The position numbers were made by a program, and so were the translations under genes. The notes under the pieces were generated by a model. The model did no database searches, had not been told where the DNA came from, and worked only from the letters and a program-made list of their open reading frames with translations. DNA of 63,187 nucleotides, the filler included, from Nitrospinae bacterium RIFCSPLOWO2_12_FULL_45_22 (GTDB lineage: Bacteria; 2-12-FULL-45-22): the NCBI GenBank assembly GCA_001803565.1. It is 9 parts of 9 records of this genome, joined end to end, with 100 filler letters (N's around TTAATTAATTAA, not from the genome) between each part and the next. Parts side by side here need not be neighbours in the genome. Positions count along the whole stretch, not along the records: positions 57,421 to 63,187 come from MHDQ01000240.1; 8 more parts are not named here. The stretch is one strand, 5' to 3'. Within the stretch, counting starts at the first letter, position 1, and each line of letters opens with the position of its first letter. This document shows positions 37,935 through 63,187 of the stretch, in pieces.

Positions 37935-40900
37935 ATGAGGGGAAGAAGTCAGAGATCTATCCTCATGTCTTTTATAGTAGTCATCTCTATCTTATCAATG
38001 GCTTTGGATTGCTTAGCCGCCAATCCTTTTCGGCTGAAAGCCCTTACCCAGGGCTACCCTACGGAATTGGAATATTCTTCTCTCACCTACTACTATTCTT
38101 ATCCCCCTTCACCTAGTCCTATCTCCTTCAATGACCTTGATCAGGTAGCTTTTGTCGCCAAGACCGTAAACCCAAAAGGGATTTTCCTTTATGATGGAAC
38201 GTCCGCTCAAGAGGTCTTTCTAGAAAAGGGCCTTACGGCCGATGCCGCCCAGATGAATACCCAGGGTCATATGGCCTTTCGGGTATATGACAAATCCACC
38301 CAGAAATATGCCCTTTATTTGTTTACGGGAGAAAGTTCACAGAAAATTTATGATGATGTGCAAGACTTTAGTTTAAATAACCAGGATCAGATAGTCTTCT
38401 CTTCCTCCCGCAAGCTATTTTTTTATGATGGTACCCAGATAACCAATATCTCTTCCCTGGGCGAGTTTTTAGAACTTTACTCCTTCAGCCTGAATAACCA
38501 GGGCCAGGTAGCTTTTCTAGCCTATAACGCTACCTCCTTACAGAACGACCTCATGATCTTTGCGGCAGGTCAAATGACCAATGTTACCGCGGGGAAAGGC
38601 GTTACCTTAAGCAAAACTTCTACTTTTTTTATTAATGATCAAGGCCAATTAGCCTTTATTGCCAGTGATAGCTCAAACAAATATTACCTATTTTTTTACG
38701 ATGGCCGCCGCCTCTCTAACCTGACTCTTAATGCTGGCATAACCCTTTCTTCATCTTCCTCCTTTCGGCTTAATAATAAAGGACAGATAGCTTTCTTAGG
38801 GACTCAAGCCTTTTTCTTCTATGATGGGGCAAATATTATCAATATTACCCAACAGACCGGGATTAGCCCTTATGCGTCCAACCCTTTGTTTATCTTAAAT
38901 GATCAGAGCCAAGTAGCCTTTTTTGGCTATGACAATACCACCAAGCGAAACGGCCTCTTCCTTTTCGCTAACCAGGCTGTTAATAATATTACCGCGGGTA
39001 TTAAAGACATAAGTGGTCTGCATTCTTTCTTCTTGAATAATAAAGGCCAGTTAGCCTTTCAGATCGGCGAAAAACGTGATGCTACTTATTCATCCAATAT
39101 CTATTTTTTTAATGGGACCCATGTTTTAACTGTCAGTACCAGCCCACCACGGGATTATACTTATCCCTATTTTATTCTCAAAGGTCTCAATGAAATGGGT
39201 CAGATCCTATTTTCGGATTCAGCTTCCCTATACCTCTATGATGGTGTTAGTACCAAGAATCTTGCCACCATCCTGGCTACCCATGAAATCCAGGTAAATA
39301 TTATTGATAAAGCATCTCTGAATGAGAAAGGTCAGGTGGCCTTCTCGGGCTCTAAGGTCTATTCTTATAACTCGGCTGATATCTTCCTTTATCAGGACGA
39401 TAAATTGATTAATCTTACAGCTAGAAAAGAGCTGGTTCAGGATAGCGCCCCTTATTCCTATTCTCTACCCCGGCTAAACAACCTCGGTCATATGGTATGT
39501 TGGGGGAGCAAGTCGGCCTATAGTCAAGAAGGGAGTATCTATCTTTATGATGGTAGCTCCCTGAAAGAGATTATCAAGAATCCACCGTTTGCCGTAAAAG
39601 ACCTGAGGCTCAATGACCAGGACCATATAGTAATCCGGGCACCCAATGATATCTATCTTTTTGACGGAACCAGGCTCCGCCATATCACTGCCAATAACGA
39701 GCTGAAATTACCCAGTAGCTCTTATTCTGATCCTATCTTTTTCACCTTCAATAACCAGGATCATATAGCCATCCGCTATAATTATTACTATTCCTATGAT
39801 AAGCAAGGCAATATCCTTTACTTCTTTGACGGCAATACCTTAAAAGAAATATATCGTAACACCTCTCCAGTCTCCCTTATGCTCGATATGAACAATAAGG
39901 GCCACCTGACTTTTTCGAGTGCGCCCGAAGGGTATATAACCGACCTCTATCTCTATGATGGCTCTACCATTACCAATCTAACCAATACGGCAGAGCTAAG
40001 TGAATCGTATCCGGCTATAAACGATAAGGATGTGATAGCCTTCCAAAGCTATACTCTCTATTCTGGGGCCGACACTCAATTATCATTATATGCTGATAAT
40101 CGTATTAGCGAGTTATTTAAGACAAAGAAGGACTTGGAGGGCATTCGGGACAATATTCAGCTCAAAGATAACTACCTGGCCTTTGAGGGTACTTCTCTTT
40201 CGAGTAACGATTGGAATCTCTATCTCTATGATGGTAAGAAGCTACATATAGTAGCCAAATTAGGCTATGGGAACTATCTCCTCAATGGCCGGGCCCGGGC
40301 AATATTATACACCACCTCAGCCAAGGAATATGGGGGCCTGACACCCTGGGAGATATATATGGCCGTGCCACTGCCCCTGGCTGATGCCGGGCCTGACCAA
40401 ATGGTTACTGTGGGCTCCAAAGTCATATTGGATGGCTCAAGTAGTTATGATATCGATGGCGATCAGATCAATTATCACTGGGTAATGCTCTCCAGGCCCG
40501 TGGGCAGTAATGCGACCCTCTCCGATCCTACTGCTTCCAATCCTAACTTCATAGCGGATACTCCGGGAATATACGAGCTGCAATTAATGGTAGATGATGG
40601 TAAAGAGAGGAGCGAGGCCAATAGTGTGCTTATCACCGTAGTGGATGCCGGAGAGCAAAAACCAATAGCTTACGCCGGCCCAGACCGGGTGGTGACTACC
40701 GGAACAACCATAACTCTGGATAGCTCAGCCAGCTACAATCCTTCAGGAGATGACTTGAGTTATAGCTGGTCTTTGCTGAGAAAGCCTTCTGATAGTCAGG
40801 CTACCTTATCTGATTCTGCTAGCAAGAATCCGTCTTTACCAATTGATAAGGATGGACTATATGAGATTGATCTGGTGGTAAAAAATAGCCAGGGCCAGAA

Positions 40901-41393
40901 TGTGTCTGATACTATCAATATCTTTGCTCTAGGCAAAGATACCAAGGTTATGGTAAAGGCCAACAAATCTGAGTATCGGGCAGGAGATACCTTAGAACTG
41001 TTTCTCTGGAAGGGTAATAGCAAATCAGGAAAGCCCGTTACTGCCGATATTTTTATCGGATTTGGCCTGCCTGATGGAAGTCTCTATTTCTTCGATCCTG
41101 CCTTGATCTTGAAGCCATCCAATTCCACTAATCCCCGAAGTTTTACCCCATTTGCCGAGGCCGCTAGCCTGATTCCTGACTTCGTATTTCCCGACTCTGT
41201 CCAGATGAATGCTGATAGCGATGCCAATGGCAAGCTGGATACCTTTCAGTTCTTCTCGGTAACCTTGCCTCCGACCTTACCCGCAGGGGAATATTTTGCC
41301 TTTGCTGCCCTGGCTGAACCCGGCTCTGTCCAGGCCGGCTCTCCTAGAATAGTAGGGGATATCAGCCTTGCTTCCTTTAGCTTCACCCGATAA
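37935..41393 (+). CDS. Large secreted beta-repeat protein with two PKD-like domains and a shared C-terminal domain
   Basis: Signal peptide; many LN..GQ.AF...FFYDG repeats; two A.AGPD..V..G....LD.S.SY modules. Confidence 0.85.
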   Translation: MRGRSQRSILMSFIVVISILSMALDCLAANPFRLKALTQGYPTELEYSSLTYYYSYPPSPSPISFNDLDQVAFVAKTVNPKGIFLYDGTSAQEVFLEKGLTADAAQMNTQGHMAFRVYDKSTQKYALYLFTGESSQKIYDDVQDFSLNNQDQIVFSSSRKLFFYDGTQITNISSLGEFLELYSFSLNNQGQVAFLAYNATSLQNDLMIFAAGQMTNVTAGKGVTLSKTSTFFINDQGQLAFIASDSSNKYYLFFYDGRRLSNLTLNAGITLSSSSSFRLNNKGQIAFLGTQAFFFYDGANIINITQQTGISPYASNPLFILNDQSQVAFFGYDNTTKRNGLFLFANQAVNNITAGIKDISGLHSFFLNNKGQLAFQIGEKRDATYSSNIYFFNGTHVLTVSTSPPRDYTYPYFILKGLNEMGQILFSDSASLYLYDGVSTKNLATILATHEIQVNIIDKASLNEKGQVAFSGSKVYSYNSADIFLYQDDKLINLTARKELVQDSAPYSYSLPRLNNLGHMVCWGSKSAYSQEGSIYLYDGSSLKEIIKNPPFAVKDLRLNDQDHIVIRAPNDIYLFDGTRLRHITANNELKLPSSSYSDPIFFTFNNQDHIAIRYNYYYSYDKQGNILYFFDGNTLKEIYRNTSPVSLMLDMNNKGHLTFSSAPEGYITDLYLYDGSTITNLTNTAELSESYPAINDKDVIAFQSYTLYSGADTQLSLYADNRISELFKTKKDLEGIRDNIQLKDNYLAFEGTSLSSNDWNLYLYDGKKLHIVAKLGYGNYLLNGRARAILYTTSAKEYGGLTPWEIYMAVPLPLADAGPDQMVTVGSKVILDGSSSYDIDGDQINYHWVMLSRPVGSNATLSDPTASNPNFIADTPGIYELQLMVDDGKERSEANSVLITVVDAGEQKPIAYAGPDRVVTTGTTITLDSSASYNPSGDDLSYSWSLLRKPSDSQATLSDSASKNPSLPIDKDGLYEIDLVVKNSQGQNVSDTINIFALGKDTKVMVKANKSEYRAGDTLELFLWKGNSKSGKPVTADIFIGFGLPDGSLYFFDPALILKPSNSTNPRSFTPFAEAASLIPDFVFPDSVQMNADSDANGKLDTFQFFSVTLPPTLPAGEYFAFAALAEPGSVQAGSPRIVGDISLASFSFTR

Positions 41394-57420: not shown

Positions 57421-58455
57421 ACTATTGGTGGTCCCCTCAAGTTACGTCAGATGCCCATCACCCGGATAGAGAATGCCTGTGCTACGGGTATGGATGCCTT
57501 GAGGAATGCCTCTTTTTCCGTAGCCTGCGGCTTATACGATATAGTCCTGATAGTAGGGGTAGAGAAGCTGAAGGATACGGGATTTGGTGGCTTGCCAGAA
57601 TTCTTCTCCCACCCAGTATATGGCCAGGGCTTTACTGCACCGGGCCGGTGGGCATTAGGTGCTACCAGGTACTTCCAGGCCCATGGCATAAAGCCAGAAG
57701 ACGGTAAGACGGCCCTGGCCAAGATTGCTGTAAAGAATCATCGTAATGGTAGCCTATCGCCTAAAGCCCATTTTCAGCGAGAGATAACGCTAGAGCAGGC
57801 ATTGAAGGCACCTATCATCGCCTGGCCTTTAGGGCTGTTCGATTGCTGCCCCACGACTGATGGGGCGGCTGCGGCCATAATATGCCGGGCGGATATGGCC
57901 CGCTCTTTTAAGGACGATTATATATTGGTGAAGGGCTTTGGGCTGGCTATGGGGCCGGGCTTAGGGAAAGAAGATATTGACTATCGGTACGACTGCTTAC
58001 CGGAGACGATAGCGGCTGGTAAGCAGGCCTATGATGCAGTAGGGATAAAGAACCCGCGTAAGGAGATCAGCTTAGCCCAACTCCATGATTGTTTTACTAT
58101 AGCAGAGCTATTGGAATATGAGGCCCTGGGGTTTTGTGGGCCGGGCAAGGCATTATTAGAGGAAGTTGATGCTGGCACCTTTACCCTGGAGGGAGAACTA
58201 CCGGTCAATACCGATGGTGGTTTAAAGGCCTTTGGTCACCCTATAGGGGCTACTGGACTCCGTATGTGCTATGAATTATACAACCAATTGCTGGGCAAGG
58301 CCGGTCCCAGGCAGATAAAGAATCCCCAATTAGGATTAGCCATGGCCCAGGGCGGCCACCCCGGTAACCTCATGCCCATCGTTACTATCCTCGGCCGCAA
58401 AGATTNNNNNNNNNNNNTCATGCCCATCGTTACTATCCTCGGCCGCAAAGATTAA
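57421..58455 (+). CDS. SCP2-type thiolase (acetyl-CoA acyltransferase), 5' partial; 3' end duplicated across a small gap
   Basis: ENACATG, VKNH, DCCPTTDGAAA, HDCF, NTDGGL...GHPIGATG. Confidence 0.9.
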   Translation, partial: TIGGPLKLRQMPITRIENACATGMDALRNASFSVACGLYDIVLIVGVEKLKDTGFGGLPEFFSHPVYGQGFTAPGRWALGATRYFQAHGIKPEDGKTALAKIAVKNHRNGSLSPKAHFQREITLEQALKAPIIAWPLGLFDCCPTTDGAAAAIICRADMARSFKDDYILVKGFGLAMGPGLGKEDIDYRYDCLPETIAAGKQAYDAVGIKNPRKEISLAQLHDCFTIAELLEYEALGFCGPGKALLEEVDAGTFTLEGELPVNTDGGLKAFGHPIGATGLRMCYELYNQLLGKAGPRQIKNPQLGLAMAQGGHPGNLMPIVTILGRKDXXXXXMPIVTILGRKD

Positions 58456-59380
58456 GCAAGGAGAGTATTCAAAGATTCACGTTCTATCCGGGTTCATCCG
58501 TGGTAGAATCCTTGTTGTTAATAACGGAGCCACCAAGGCTCACTAAGTAGCTGCAGGGCCTTGCCCTGACCGCTCTGATCACAAAAAATCCAAATTTCTT
58601 CCTTCGGGTGATATGACAGGCAAGGGCTCAGGCGAAATGGCCGGTAGCCGTATTGCCTTACGCTGCCGCCTCTTCGACATACCGGCAAGAATTTTTGCGG
58701 CTTCCTGGAGGCATCGGTTACTAAAATATTAATTCTAGAAGCTCTCATTTCTTATTTAGGAACATGACCTTTCATATTCAGCCTTATGCCTTTCCCTCGG
58801 TTCCAATATTTTCCTTGACCCAGTTGCTACAACCTGATATAAAGATGCTCAGCTATTGTATTCTTAGGGAAATCCCTGCCTGAAAGTCAATAAAGTCATC
58901 TTTCCATGATGGATTTGGGGCTAGGAAAATGGTTAAGTTCCTATACCTGTTTTGATTTCTTGTTATCCCTGAGTTACTAAACCACAGATAAAAACTATAT
59001 CTCAAATATTTGACAGAAAAGGCTATGTTTGTATGTGAAGTCTTGACCCGGGACAAACATAATAATGGGCAAGATTTGGGATTGAAATATACACCTTGGG
59101 CTTAAAAAGCATGAGAGACTTCCTAAATAGTAAAGGTTAAAGGCAGGAAATATTGACAGCAACAGGTGTAAGTGCTAAAAATTAAGGTTGGATTAAAAAA
59201 ACCACCGGAAAGTCTGAAGAAGGAAGGGGGGTGAGAAAAACAAAAACTAGAGACTGGAACTTTAGTGAAAGATATCCCTAAAACAGCGGATAACATGACA
59301 ATTTTAGGGATAAGCGTAATATTGCGGTTATTAACCATTTAAGCCAAAATTCCGTCTCGAGGTTAAATAAGGAGATAGTA

Positions 59381-59788
59381 ATGGACCCAACATCCTTGGC
59401 TACTATCGCTACAAGTGCAGTTGCCTTGCTCTCCCCATATCTGGAGAAGGCGGGCGAGGAATTTGCCAAGTCTGCTGGAAGCGCAGCTTGGAACAAGGCA
59501 GAGAAGTTGTATCAAGCCATCAAGGCTAAATTTGCTGTTAAGTTTGCTGCAAGGGAGGCTCTTGATAATCTTGCAAAAATACCCGAAGACCCTGACACTC
59601 AAGCTGCAGTGTGCGCCGAACTCAAGAAAGTGATGGCGGTTGATGAAAAGTTTGCTAAACAGCTCGCTGGCATCCTCAAAGAAGCCGCTGAAGCCGGTGT
59701 AGACAGAGTTTTCAACACCACAATCTATGGGGATGTTGCGAAACTCATCCAAATAGGTGATGTCTATGGTGACGTCACGATTTCTTAA
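59381..59788 (+). CDS. Bell/HeLo-like helical effector with C-terminal RHIM-like amyloid motif
   Basis: RBS AAGGAG; hydrophobic N-helix MDP...ATSAVALLSPYL, A..AG..AW...LY..IK.KF, P.D.D; tail FNTTIYGDVAKLIQIGDVYGDVTIS. Confidence 0.78.
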   Translation: MDPTSLATIATSAVALLSPYLEKAGEEFAKSAGSAAWNKAEKLYQAIKAKFAVKFAAREALDNLAKIPEDPDTQAAVCAELKKVMAVDEKFAKQLAGILKEAAEAGVDRVFNTTIYGDVAKLIQIGDVYGDVTIS

Positions 59789-59836
59789 AGTTGCGGATTA
59801 GGTTAATCAGCCCTCAACCCACGGGAGAAGACAGAT

Positions 59837-60505
59837 ATGACTGATAATTCAAGGCGCGATACCTATATACACGGTAATTTGGACAAACTGACCACGATTG
59901 GAACAGTACAGGGCAACGTCTTGATCGTGAATGAAAAGGCTATTAAGGATAATTTAGGGAGGATACAAGGTGCCCTATCATCTCGACATCTATATCCCGT
60001 AGAGAATGTGAGCGACTACATCAAGGTCATCATCAAATCAAACCGCTTCGGTCGAAAAATCCAGCTTCAGGTGCCACAAGGCATGACCATAAAGGCACTT
60101 ATTGACTTTGAGGTTGACTTGCTTGGGCTTCCTTGGCGGAAATCTCTTGACGAGTTGATGATTTCCTTTAACTTCCGGTATTATGTTGTTTACCAAGGTA
60201 AGAAAGTGCCCCTCAATAAGACTCTGCGTGATGCAAACATCCATGATGGTGCTGAACTTGAGCTTTCAATCGTAGCGATTTGGACCGATGAAGTCGAGGA
60301 AGTTGAGGGCGTGGAAGCCAAAAATGGACTGGCAGTGATGTATGAAATAGGTGGCAGAATGCAACAACTGGCCACGCGTGAGGCTGCGCGCAAAGCTAGA
60401 GGAGTGATAACAACAAGCAAGATAAAATCTTGGGCGAATAGCTTCTTTACGTTCGTTGACGAGTTGGGGGAGCTGACAAAAGGTAACGAGGCGAATTCAC
60501 ATTGA
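59837..60505 (+). CDS. Protein with N-terminal matching amyloid motif and ubiquitin-like (YukD/EsaB-like) domain
   Basis: N-terminal TYIHGNLDKLTTIGTVQGNVLI; beta-grasp pattern IKVII...LQVPQGMTIKALI...YQGKKVPLNKTLRDANIHDGAELEL. Confidence 0.72.
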   Translation: MTDNSRRDTYIHGNLDKLTTIGTVQGNVLIVNEKAIKDNLGRIQGALSSRHLYPVENVSDYIKVIIKSNRFGRKIQLQVPQGMTIKALIDFEVDLLGLPWRKSLDELMISFNFRYYVVYQGKKVPLNKTLRDANIHDGAELELSIVAIWTDEVEEVEGVEAKNGLAVMYEIGGRMQQLATREAARKARGVITTSKIKSWANSFFTFVDELGELTKGNEANSH

Positions 60506-60511
60506 AACCTC

Positions 60512-60591
60512 GGCTAATACGGCGTTGACTGCTTCGCTACGATCTGCTCAAATGGCCTTCGGCCACTGCGCCAACACCAGAAATGTTAAAT
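60512..60591 (+). mobile_element. Degenerate attC-like site
   Basis: GGCTAAT...GGCGTTGACTG pairs imperfectly with CGCCAACACC; internal TGGCCTTCGGCCA hairpin; terminal GTTAAAT fits GTTRRRY. Confidence 0.55.
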
Positions 60592-60669
60592 GAGATATCA
60601 GCCTAATTTGTTCTTCTAAGGATATAAAGCATTTAAAATTTAAACCTGGGTTCTCTGGGGAGTGTAATT

Positions 60670-62274
60670 ATGTTTAAGTCCTTTGAACAAGATATACTTA
60701 GAGCTGTTTCAGGTAAATTTAACCTTCTTCAAGGTATTACCTTGTCAACAGCCATACTATTTGAAGGGCATGATTGGCAAGCTACAGAATATCACGAATG
60801 TATACATATGGAATTAACTGATAATAGCATCTTCGGATATTTCCAAAGGCTTCTACTTTCTCTAATATTCTCCCCGAATGTCCCTCAAGAACATAAAAAA
60901 ATTTACAGAACTGCTTTTGAGGAAACAATGAAAAATAGTTTTATGGTGCATGAAGGATTAGCTACCTACAGAGCATTAGCCTGGTACAATGCTTATTCTG
61001 ACAAAGCAGAAGTTTACCGCCAAACGCTCCGGGAAGATTATAAGAAAGCATTAGAATATGTTTTGCAACTACTACCCGATTATATCCTTATTACTACACC
61101 CGAATTGCAAGCAGGAGTTCACGCCCTTTGCGTTTTGCTAGGTTGCTATTTGCTAAATGCTCCTATTCCAGTCTATTATGAAAATTGGAATTTGTTACGA
61201 AGTTCGACGCTGAAGTATATCAATATAGATAGCCCAGATGATAGACTTAAGAATTTAATCGAATATAAGGATAAGAAAAATGTTTTGCTATTATTATTGC
61301 AGGAAGTTCAAATTATTCATGAAGACCTTTTTAAATTTGAAGGCCATTTGGACAATTTTGGGGGCCATCTCGATAATACTATTTCATCATTAAAGACGAT
61401 ATTTCCCCAAATTCCTGTTTGTGGTTTTTTTGAAAGAGGCGAATTATTTTTAAAAATGCTTAAAAATTGGCGAAAACAACTCGAAAGTAAATATAGATAT
61501 GGTCAATATCTATTTAACGATGAGATAAAATCTCGGTTGTCTAAAAAACCAAGAGAGGTCGGTATAGAAAAAGTAATTTATGAAGTCATCTTTGCTAATC
61601 TTAATGCGGGGATGAAATTAAATGGTTATAAAGAAATAAATCTTCCAGATATTAGTACATATCTTAAGAGGGTTAGCGAGATAATTGAAACCGGGGATAT
61701 CCCCTTTATTGTAATTGTAGCAAATCCAACCAAGGAAGATATTCAAATAACCAAGGACTATAAATTAGCCTCAAATACAATTATTGGTTCAATATTTAAT
61801 ATAAAAATAGATGAATTAAATAATTTTAGCATTGAAATCAAAAATCGGACGATTTACAACTTTATAAGCTCATTGACAGAATTATTTGAGTCAGCTAAAA
61901 AGCTTCCCAAGAATAGTGTAATTCATTATCTGAATAGTTACTATCAGAATTTATTATTACAATATCAGTACAAATTTAATCATTTTTATATAATTAGAAT
62001 AATCAATTATGAGGATTTTCGAAAATCTTTTCATATAGATAACATTAGGTGCTTTTTTTATTACAATAACAGAAAAACCGCATTTTGCTACTATAATGAG
62101 AATGAGCATTCTTTTTATTTTTATATAATAAATTTAATGCAGAAGGAAAATATCAAGCGTATGCTGGCAAATAAATTTCTTATTGACCCTAAAGAGTATT
62201 TTTGTCAGATTGGCAATAATGAAATTTCGATGCAACAGCTTGCCTTATTAGCATTTTGGGGATTAAGTTTATAA
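60670..62274 (+). CDS. AT-rich hypothetical protein with N-terminal gluzincin-like metallopeptidase motifs
   Basis: HECIH (HExxH) followed about 50 aa later by HEGLATY (EGxA third ligand). Confidence 0.65.
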   Translation: MFKSFEQDILRAVSGKFNLLQGITLSTAILFEGHDWQATEYHECIHMELTDNSIFGYFQRLLLSLIFSPNVPQEHKKIYRTAFEETMKNSFMVHEGLATYRALAWYNAYSDKAEVYRQTLREDYKKALEYVLQLLPDYILITTPELQAGVHALCVLLGCYLLNAPIPVYYENWNLLRSSTLKYINIDSPDDRLKNLIEYKDKKNVLLLLLQEVQIIHEDLFKFEGHLDNFGGHLDNTISSLKTIFPQIPVCGFFERGELFLKMLKNWRKQLESKYRYGQYLFNDEIKSRLSKKPREVGIEKVIYEVIFANLNAGMKLNGYKEINLPDISTYLKRVSEIIETGDIPFIVIVANPTKEDIQITKDYKLASNTIIGSIFNIKIDELNNFSIEIKNRTIYNFISSLTELFESAKKLPKNSVIHYLNSYYQNLLLQYQYKFNHFYIIRIINYEDFRKSFHIDNIRCFFYYNNRKTAFCYYNENEHSFYFYIINLMQKENIKRMLANKFLIDPKEYFCQIGNNEISMQQLALLAFWGLSL

Positions 62275-62432
62275 TGCCATTAGACAAATGCAAATTTTAT
62301 TATTTTTTGCAGTTTTTGCAACCATAATGTTATTATCAAAATAGACTGGATACTTTATCTAACACAGGCTTTGTATTTTGCAGACCCTGAAAAGTACTTT
62401 AAGGACGAAGTGGAAATACTTCTTGATACATA

Positions 62433-62524
62433 AGATAACAAAGCCTATCGTGGTTCCGTGCCTTTGGCAATTCACCCAAATCTAGCCTGACGGCTGGACT
62501 TCAGATACGCTGGTAACATTATGC
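62433..62524 (+). mobile_element. Degenerate attC-like site
   Basis: AGATAAC...AGCCTATCGTG pairs with CAGATACGCT; internal hairpins; ends ATTATGC (GTTATGC with one change). Confidence 0.55.
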
Positions 62525-63100
62525 AAAATTCTATAAAAAATCAGTAGGGAGAATGTTTCCGGTTGTAACCTACACATTTGAAAGCTCTTCGTAAAGTAAA
62601 GATTACTACGAGAAAGCGATACTCTATATATGGGGGGTAATAGCGGAAGGGGTTTCTATATGATTATGGACCCTTTCAAACCCTGCAGCCAATCCTTCGC
62701 TCCCCCTGTCTGCCAACAGGCAGGTTGGGCTTCATAACTTTTAATAGCTGCTATAATTTTTGTTGATGCAGGCGACAGAAATCAGCAGATTTGCGGTCGG
62801 TATCAATGGTTATGACCCGCAAGCAATTTCCTGCTCCCGAGGGTTTTGTTTTGCCTTTCTCCTTCTTTTATAAATCTATGCCCGGCTAAAGCCTCTCCTT
62901 TTAATGGGGGATACAGGCCGTTATACAGGGCCGGGACCACCTTCTGTGGAGGAGTGATAACATCCGCCCCGTTGAAGTAATAAGTTCCGTACTTTACCTC
63001 ACTATATGTGAGATTTAGTGTGAGGTAGTTCACCACCCTTAATTCTTGATACCCTGGCAAATCTGAGGGACAGGTAATATAGAAACTGCCCGCATTTTTC

Positions 63101-63187
63101 TCAATACGCACTTCCTCGTGGAAGGATGGCGTAAACATGAATAAGCTTTTTATTTTTGTCTGGTGTAAAGAGGATTCTCCAGTTCCC
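63101..63187 (-). CDS. RelE/ParE-family toxin, C-terminal fragment cut by the window edge
   Basis: Translates GNWRILFTPDKNKKLIHVYAILPRGSAY*. Confidence 0.7.
   Translation of the reverse strand, partial: GNWRILFTPDKNKKLIHVYAILPRGSAY

Follow-up and report, generated by a model that had tools for sequence, protein, structure and literature searches.

A Bell-like helical protein and a small ubiquitin-like partner share a terminal motif in a candidate two-gene cell-death cassette of a Nitrospinae bacterium

Can the receptor of an amyloid-signalling cell-death system be reduced to a small ubiquitin-like protein? The question is raised by a pair of adjacent genes, here called gene 1 and gene 2, from Nitrospinae bacterium RIFCSPLOWO2_12_FULL_45_22 (assembly GCA_001803565.1). 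The pair lies in part MHDQ01000240.1 (positions 57,421-63,187) of the window, a term that denotes the whole 63,187-nt stretch of DNA that was analysed. In the fungal HET-S/NWD2 system, a motif at the N-terminus of the receptor templates the C-terminal motif of an effector, beside a membrane-targeting helical domain. The same receptor-to-effector motif logic, shared by HET-S/NWD2 and the RHIM-type systems (RIPK1/RIPK3, PP, BASS3), is what we propose for genes 1 and 2. With moderate confidence, we lean to the view that the pair is a self-contained cassette for regulated cell death, of the abortive-infection type and of the Bell/BASS amyloid-signalling kind, in which an NTPase-free module takes the place of the STAND/NLR receptor. 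The features on which this view is built are as follows.

59381..59788, plus strand: gene 1, an open reading frame (ORF) of 135 aa, stop codon counted in the coordinates, encoding the Bell-like putative effector.
59381..59704, plus strand: helical domain of gene 1, residues 1-108, as assigned by DSSP on an AlphaFold2 (AF2) model; hydrophobic helix 1 (residues 3-26) followed by four more main helices.
59717..59782, plus strand: C-terminal 22-residue motif of gene 1, residues 113-134, matching the head of gene 2 without gaps; effector-side, resembling an amyloid-signalling motif.
59837..60505, plus strand: gene 2, an ORF of 222 aa, stop codon counted, comprising a motif, a ubiquitin-like (Ubl) domain and a helical tail.
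59861..59926, plus strand: N-terminal 22-residue motif of gene 2, residues 9-30, conserved in the family; partner-side motif.
60011..60289, plus strand: predicted ubiquitin-like beta-grasp of gene 2, residues ~59-151, from the AF2 model, Foldseek and VIA-align.
60290..60493, plus strand: acidic, helical C-terminal region of gene 2, residues 152-219, with helices taken from the AF2 model and the conserved end F-x-F-[IV]-D-E-[IL]-G.

The two genes are collinear and separated by 48 nt, each being preceded by a purine-rich stretch that resembles a ribosome-binding site. A scan for promoters and terminators returned counts no different from those of shuffled sequences.

The tie between the two products lies in their motifs. 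A gapless alignment of gene 1 residues 113-134 with gene 2 residues 9-30 has 11 identities in 22 positions, as the initial annotation had stated for the same two ORFs, and the two (I/V)xG(D/N)(V/L) pseudo-repeats that it ascribed to each protein can be read directly (IYGDV and VYGDV in one, IHGNL and VQGNV in the other). Ungapped comparison of the last 35 residues of gene 1 with the first 40 of gene 2 has a top BLOSUM62 score of 49. In 5000 shuffles of both segments the mean was 18.8 (standard deviation 3.8) and the maximum 43, and not one shuffle attained the observed score or the observed identity. When the 53 other window ORFs of at least 100 aa were used for comparison, the tail of gene 1 scored 23 or less with their N-termini and the head of gene 2 scored 29 or less with their C-termini. 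Thus, the match is not a product of chance. It is also conserved: the motif is kept in all 12 close homologues of gene 2, in the 8 closest of the 14 aligned gene 1 homologues and in each of the nine distinct separate pairs described below, and the family consensus lines of tail and head, read by eye, have the same residue at 15 of 22 positions. Within the gene 2 motif, at least 90% of 24 aligned members retain G13, K17, L18 and G26, their overall identity being only 27-61%. The motif is proline-free, rich in G, V, I, N, D and Q, and arranged in two units over its 22 residues; BASS motifs have been described with such length, composition and layout (Dyrka et al., bioRxiv 10.1101/2020.01.06.895854). 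The tail of gene 1 gave weak matches to DUF6342 (best E value 0.071, in 4 of 14 members).

The pair recurs as a pair. Scans of genome and metagenome contigs yielded 16 loci with a gene 2 relative (L001-L016, of which L003 is the window's own contig); the metagenome scan used an alignment of close gene 2 homologues, and a subfamily ending in ...EPWFAHL, introduced below, is not represented among these loci. At 14 of the 16, a gene 1 relative with a matched motif lies 29-48 nt upstream on the same strand, which bears out the expectation that homologues would be neighbours. The two remaining loci are instructive in other ways. In L014 (151-1119), both relatives are joined in one 322-aa ORF with a single hybrid motif, an arrangement seen in one contig and thus open to assembly error; here the last part of the gene 1 motif continues as the second half of the gene 2 motif, and it looks as though the intervening region had dropped out. 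In L002 (2739-3904, from an Allocoleopsis metagenome-assembled genome, or MAG), gene 1 is missing and the gene 2 relative has only the second half of the motif, with no in-frame ATG, GTG or TTG before it; the listed ORF starts at a GTG after the half-motif. Since the partner gene, half of the motif and an upstream start codon are all missing, this locus looks like a product of decay. The place of the Bell-like gene in L002 is taken by a 172-aa coiled-coil-like protein with no Pfam family, and a ParD/RelE-like pair, judged by eye, lies downstream.

Collapsing identical loci left 11 distinct sequences: nine separate pairs, one fusion and one orphan. Eight of these pairs belong to a single lineage near an Anaerolineae MAG, so that adjacency really has independent support from two lineages and from the fusions. 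The loci do not share a conserved third gene, and no NLR gene stands beside the pair in any of them. Elsewhere the neighbours are unrelated housekeeping genes (B12-radical SAM, amylase, aldehyde dehydrogenase, ACT, Rce1-like), and none of the ThiF/E1, E2 or JAB families was found among the 10 neighbour ORFs scanned (from L016, L008 and L002). In the Anaerolineae lineage, a 455-aa ORF lies directly downstream of the pair (L016 5735-7102, the same as L001 2264-3631) and is absent from the window; it has no Pfam match at E <= 0.001, and its C-terminus recalls, by eye, DisA_N/DAC-type domains.

The initial annotation likened gene 1 to Bell, HeLo and MLKL proteins. Bell domains are described as helical, about 100 aa long, with a hydrophobic N-terminal helix and an acidic residue at position 2 or 3 (bioRxiv 10.1101/2020.01.06.895854), and the Bell/Babybell fold as four helices cupping helix 1, with an N-terminal "MEPIS"-type motif (Ibarlosa et al., bioRxiv 10.1101/2024.11.07.622273). 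Gene 1 begins MDPTSLATIATSAVALL... (starting MDPTS), and the hydrophobic N-terminal segment appears in its alignment as ...ATIATSAVALLSPYL... Its 14 homologues measure 130-156 aa; M1 is found in 13 of the 14 and D2 in all of them, while Pro68 and Asp88 are invariant. An AF2 model computed with the homologue alignment is helical throughout (predicted local distance difference test, pLDDT, 85; predicted template-modelling score, pTM, 0.80), with DSSP helices at 3-26, 35-51, 55-66, 71-87 and 89-104; the helical domain accounts for ~105 aa of the 135-aa protein. As far as the model goes, gene 1 is thus a Bell-type protein in its all-alpha domain of the described size, its hydrophobic helix 1 and its acidic residue at position 2.

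Paralogues lend support to this placement. The gene 1 profile, run against two genomes with relatives of the pair, matches proteins of ~140-146 aa (L020, E 1e-15; L021, E 4e-15) whose C-terminal motif reappears N-terminally in the next gene product. That next product is an NB-ARC protein in L020 (Pfam, 51 bits) and an nSTAND1 NTPase in L021 (E 1e-102), where the motif reads ...NAKQIGQIGQA.... Because these profile paralogues adjoin NB-ARC and nSTAND1 genes with matched motifs, gene 1 falls in the same domain family as the classical pairs of a Bell-motif protein and an NLR; its Bell membership rests on these layout-defined paralogues and not on published Bell accessions. The Anaerolineae MAG also encodes a second Bell-like protein, and the protein after it combines TPR repeats with a hydrophobic segment and, N-terminally, a related motif (L022 1501-3029). 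No NTPase match was found within the 344 aa of the latter that were read, and it may represent another non-NLR partner.

Comparison with catalogued families and folds was less informative. Neither Pfam, NCBIfam nor PADLOC returned anything significant for gene 1; across the gene 1 family, no Pfam model matched, one member reaching SesA at E 0.015. The nearest ESM Atlas clusters consist of cyanobacterial proteins of 131-145 aa, and one of these clusters has HetE-N on 14% of its members. A profile search of PDB sequences had a best E value of 0.19. No match to Bab, HeLo or MLKL stood out in the fold and PDB searches, and neither Pfam nor the fold search gave any homology to the HeLo domain of HET-S. 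Thus, of the likeness first proposed, the helical build, Asp2, hydrophobic helix 1 and the paralogues beside NB-ARC and nSTAND1 genes stand, while fold searches placed the protein among generic bundles only. Bell-type folds are themselves reported to vary widely (bioRxiv 10.1101/2024.11.07.622273). More distant homologues of gene 1 (P0021-P0024) bear other C-terminal motifs. Longer forms comprise only P0095, fused to an FGE-sulfatase domain; no NLR fusion occurred among the longer forms searched, which is weak evidence.

Gene 2 presents a different picture from the partner of a classical pair. No NTPase or repeat family was detected in it with Pfam, NCBIfam or PADLOC at E values up to 10, in keeping with the earlier description of a 222-aa partner with no P-loop. 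The 12 close homologues, 202-225 aa in length, have in common the N-terminal motif, an invariant KS-x-RFGRK loop and the conserved C-terminal end, with R188, F204 and D208 invariant. In gene 2 the loop reads KSNRFGRK and contains the invariant S68, F71 and G72; Y115 and D151 are invariant as well. The AF2 model (pLDDT 76.8, pTM 0.71) divides the protein into the motif region, 15-31, at moderate confidence, a disordered linker (44-58), a beta-grasp (61-151, pLDDT 87-94) and a tail of helices (152-162, 173-188, 193-202, 205-208 and 212-219). Both the central beta-grasp and the C-terminal helical region that had been predicted from the sequence are therefore present in the model. Foldseek against the PDB placed ubiquitin and its relatives on top (E 1.3e-6, template-modelling (TM) score by target 0.8-0.88, ~23% identity). 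In a VIA-align comparison with 48,161 representative chains, Ubl domains filled all of the best 50 rows (Z 7.6-9.0), with root-mean-square deviations of 1.6-3.3 in the top 20 rows and 4.6 in one lower row. Several Pfam Ubl families (TUG-UBL1 at E 0.0033, Rad60-SLD, YukD, ubiquitin) lay below their cut-offs, and the gene 2 profile reaches two polyubiquitin-like proteins, P0088 and P0089, at E ~1e-5. Together, these comparisons indicate that the modelled beta-beta-alpha-beta-beta-(loop)-beta domain superposes on ubiquitin and is a ubiquitin-like beta-grasp. The helical tail had no structural match in VIA-align. A C-terminal Gly-Gly is absent from the beta-grasp, which runs on into this conserved tail.

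We considered whether gene 2 might be a fragment of a longer NLR, and rejected the idea: its homologues are 202-225 aa long with a conserved C-terminal end, and, among the 70 representatives of the profile search described below, the longest that bears the module measures 367 aa. The only longer hit is P0089 (512 aa), which is polyubiquitin-like in appearance. No P-loop protein was found among the 19 of 70 gene 2 representatives scanned. A complex prediction of full-length gene 2 with full-length gene 1, each with its own alignment, scored 0.04 and is evidence neither way.

The Ubl module is not confined to the pair. An exhaustive search of 1.84 billion representatives with the gene 2 profile returned 70 proteins, 19 of which were covered by the family scan. 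The full two-part motif is present in 18 of the 70, including a second subfamily with a different C-terminal end (...EPWFAHL); some of these motif-bearing forms have, by eye, a single hydrophobic, presumably membrane helix at the N-terminus, before the motif. In five of the 70 (P0034, P0035, P0036, P0047 and P0076), the same chain holds a gene 1-like helical domain ahead of the Ubl module (E 1e-31 to 9e-18), and the motifs of these proteins are degenerate, as expected if the motif were needed only between separate proteins. Two short database proteins, P0056 and P0057, have near-identical odd tails (...ASP.CARLACG-like), and in P0057 the tail of gene 1 is joined directly to the head of gene 2; the two look more like assembly or adapter artefacts than like true fusions.

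TIR and Mrr-like nuclease domains are typical antiphage effector domains, and both occur before the module. Twelve of the 70 proteins have a TIR domain in this position and no motif, nine being full length and three N-terminally cut fragments; the count of 12 comes from a hidden Markov model built on five proteins confirmed with Pfam TIR_2 (E 3.8e-30 to 3.9e-13; 5 of the 19 scanned). Only the TIR part of these relatives matches PADLOC. In P0087 the module follows an Mrr-like restriction-endonuclease domain (ESM Atlas structure rows, TM score 0.64-0.71) that elsewhere precedes nSTAND3 NTPases or SAVED; P0083, P0092 and P0094 have an N-terminus like that of P0087, by eye only. In P0090 the module follows EAD7 (E 7.6e-18), an effector-recruiting adaptor (Kaur et al. 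2020, PMC7159879). Since it follows TIR, Mrr-like nuclease, Bell-like and EAD7 domains alike, the Ubl module occupies the position of a sensor or regulator, as STAND and SAVED do. In forms with effector and module on separate proteins, the motif is well conserved, but fused forms have a degenerate motif or none at all; this fits a role for the motif as a link between the two.

We propose that gene 1 would act as the executioner, a Bell-like bundle sheathing hydrophobic helix 1 and followed by a 22-residue motif of the beta-arch type. Gene 2 would be the receptor or switch, displaying its N-terminal motif on a flexible linker ahead of the ubiquitin-like beta-grasp and the conserved helical tail. 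The Ubl/helical module would self-associate in response to a trigger, which is probably a phage product or some change brought on by infection. This would bring neighbouring gene 2 motifs to fold cooperatively into a cross-beta nucleus, which could then template the matching tail of gene 1. Conversion of the tail would release helix 1 from the Bell-like domain, leading to attack on the membrane and cell death. Such a role in phage defence is suggested by analogy with the systems discussed below.

Several observations weigh against this scheme, and they concern the motif first of all. It is called amyloid- or BASS-type from its length, composition and layout, and amyloid formation by either copy is something we infer by analogy. 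The initial annotation saw the RHIM core in the IQIG of gene 1. This tetrapeptide is indeed there, but the central signature of RHIM, PP and BASS3 motifs is G-phi-Q-phi-G (Dyrka et al., bioRxiv 10.1101/2020.01.06.895854), and gene 1 reads L-I-Q-I-G and gene 2 L-T-T-I-G (family consensus L-T-Q-I-G); a phi-Q-phi-G core is thus found in gene 1 and in most gene 2 homologues, with L replacing the first G. Pfam RHIM matched neither protein at E values up to 10. Co-variation of the two motifs, which the initial annotation had proposed to look for, was not seen: over the nine distinct pairs, cognate tails and heads have 11.7 identities of 22 and non-cognate ones 11.9. This test has low power because eight of the nine pairs belong to one closely related lineage. 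In the AF2 models the gene 1 motif is drawn as a helix (115-128; the 10-residue blocks that cover it average pLDDT 85, 63 and 38), and that of gene 2 as a helix together with a hairpin, the hairpin with pLDDT ~83. As for the effector domain, Foldseek found nothing for the gene 1 model in the PDB at E <= 0.001 (MLKL, 6zvo, ranking 50th at E 3.9), and VIA-align gave generic bundles with a best Z of 5.9 (ZAR1 chain 6j5t_G, Z 4.7). Finally, there is the genomic context: PADLOC (PADLOC-DB 2.0) gives no hit for genes 1-3 (gene 3 being the ORF downstream of the pair) at E up to 10, no relative of the pair was found in viral contigs, the flanks hold no recognisable defence islands, and the family is rare, with a strong match in one of 401 cyanobacterial and one of 401 Chloroflexota genomes sampled, in each case the genome on which the search was centred.

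Some of these same points suit a different reading, in which the motif would be a stable, non-amyloid beta-strand docking tag by which gene 2 holds a Bell-like toxin inactive, in the manner of an antitoxin or chaperone. Killing would then follow once the Ubl protein is degraded, modified or titrated away during infection. The lack of co-variation and of amyloid support is in line with this idea, as is the placing of part of the gene 2 motif in a confident hairpin and not in disorder. The single-chain fusions favour it as well, in that they show permanent association to be tolerated, so that the module would have to keep the effector silent in cis. Set against this are the length of the motif and its proline-free, two-unit layout rich in G, V, I, N, D and Q, as in BASS motifs, and the gene 1 paralogues, which have other motifs of this kind and STAND partners, arranged as in published amyloid-signalling systems. 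Moreover, the module takes the place of an activating receptor when it is fused to TIR, nuclease or EAD7 domains. We regard the docking tag as unlikely, though the strongest of the alternatives.

A cassette with the same or a similar mechanism might instead serve cell death or self/non-self recognition in multicellular life, that is in development, kin discrimination or stress, and not in phage defence. Bell/BASS pairs occur mainly in filamentous or aggregate-forming prokaryotes (bioRxiv 10.1101/2020.01.06.895854), and among the relatives of the present pair are those from the Anaerolineae and Allocoleopsis MAGs; the housekeeping character of the flanks, free of defence islands, and the want of a PADLOC match point the same way. 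The fusion of the module to TIR and Mrr-like nuclease domains speaks for defence, as does, weakly, the hint from contig depth (see below) that the cassette lies on a strain-variable branch, and the only Bell-type pair tested so far acts against phage (bioRxiv 10.1101/2024.11.07.622273). We therefore think a multicellular role improbable. That the Ubl domain is a modifier, released and conjugated to a target to which the N-terminal motif then recruits the Bell-like effector (compare EAD1-Ubl and FtsH-ternary systems), is very improbable indeed, for although Ubls fused to effector-recruiting adaptor domains have been described (Kaur et al. 2020, PMC7159879) and the gene 2 profile reaches the polyubiquitin-like repeats of P0088 and P0089, the domain lacks a Gly-Gly end and continues into the helical tail, the neighbour ORFs scanned include no E1/ThiF, E2 or JAB, and the cassette consists of two genes only in all loci.

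We return to the amyloid-signalling cassette and its published counterparts. As in the Bell/BASS/NLR pairs (Dyrka et al., bioRxiv 10.1101/2020.01.06.895854), a helical protein of ~120-140 aa with an acidic residue 2 and a hydrophobic helix 1 ends in a motif of ~22 residues that is repeated, after a short gap, at the N-terminus of the next collinear gene. In those pairs the partner is an NB-ARC or NACHT protein with TPR or WD repeats, whereas gene 2 has none of these and consists of 222 aa with a ubiquitin-like domain. Closer in this respect is Bab/Agp of E. coli ECOR25, in which a Bell-type protein and a motif-sharing non-NLR partner bring about abortive infection by amyloid signalling (Ibarlosa et al., bioRxiv 10.1101/2024.11.07.622273). 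There too, a bundle surrounds an N-terminal hydrophobic helix and a motif of ~20 residues is common to the C-terminus of the effector and the N-terminus of its partner. The differences are that the partner is TPR-GreA/B-C-PIN where gene 2 is ubiquitin-like with a helical tail, that the helical domain of Bab spans ~80 aa against ~105 aa in gene 1, and that the Bab/Agp motif is BASS11 while the motif of genes 1 and 2 carries no BASS class assignment. Since Bab/Agp already has a TPR-GreA/B-C-PIN partner, a non-NLR partner, although it holds for the present pair as first proposed, is not new in itself.

Precedents for the partner itself come from other sources. Self-assembly of Ubls is documented for proteins of E1/E2/deubiquitinase (DUB) operons, some of which form filaments (Gong et al., PMC11601603), and Ubl-linked recruitment of effectors for EAD1-Ubl (Kaur et al. 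2020, PMC7159879). Like gene 2, these proteins have a beta-grasp after an N-terminal adaptor element and occur in the context of conflict systems. Gene 2 departs from them in the absence of conjugation enzymes nearby and of a Gly-Gly end, and in having a single beta-grasp, a conserved helical tail and, as adaptor, a short motif of the amyloid type. A broader proposal can be put forward tentatively, as possible rather than probable: the Ubl domain and helical tail, ~160 residues in all, could be an undescribed NTPase-free immune receptor or switch that replaces STAND/NLR or SAVED and drives effectors of the TIR, Mrr-like nuclease, EAD7-recruited and Bell types, within a single chain or across two proteins by way of an amyloid-type tag. 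Such a module may fire by Ubl-driven self-assembly, or it may act as a ubiquitin-like decoy attacked by phage enzymes that are aimed at Ubl-based defences of the host.

The surroundings of the pair in the window deserve a brief account. The window is built from a series of contigs, and its last 4770 nt (58418-63187) are metagenome contig L003. Twelve N at 58406-58417 precede it, with the same 36 nt on either side (58370-58454). Contigs from four public DNA runs pass from 58369 straight into 58418, which identifies the gap as an overlap artefact and means that a thiolase-like gene (57451-58455) truly adjoins the contig with the cassette. The contig that holds the cassette and gene 3 (59024-62635) has a depth of ~7, compared with ~19-22 in the left flank (in two of the four runs, X1 and X2); a loose end branches at 59053, and some contigs omit 253 nt (58542 to 58796). 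The cassette may therefore lie on a strain-variable branch or insertion, contig depth being a weak basis for saying so. The stretch is present in groundwater, soil and sediment metagenomes. Gene 3, downstream (60670-62274, plus strand), would encode 534 aa and matches no Pfam, NCBIfam or PADLOC family. A role as a third component was entertained but dropped: none of the 15 other loci has the gene, it belongs to no family, and its G+C content of 24-35% is much lower than the 44-48% of genes 1 and 2. It is probably a separate, recently acquired gene. Two other ORFs of the window have no link to the pair: one at 43442-44737 matches only the C-terminal part of the N6_N4_Mtase DNA methylase family (profile positions 174-217), and an upstream one at 37935-41393 encodes a 1152-aa protein with PKD repeats.

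Amyloid signalling from a receptor to a pore-former has been known from fungi and animals and, since 2024, from one defence system of E. coli. What appears new here, as far as the literature search shows, is a partner made of only a Ubl domain and a helical tail, together with the occurrence of this module after TIR, nuclease, EAD7 and Bell domains. A full-text search found no paper on a ubiquitin-like partner of a Bell/BASS effector; the supplementary partner tables of the BASS papers, which lay outside its reach, might list such proteins. With the receptor position held by a Ubl module of ~160 residues and no nucleotide-binding domain, the pair poses the question of how so small a protein can both detect a trigger and nucleate an amyloid. 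With only 357 residues between its two proteins, the pair would rank among the smallest complete receptor-effector death switches, and this small size makes it attractive for structural and reconstitution work. Because the same module also stands behind TIR, nuclease and adaptor domains, it could represent a new sensor family of prokaryotic immunity and, possibly, connect ubiquitin-like folds with regulated cell death in a new way.

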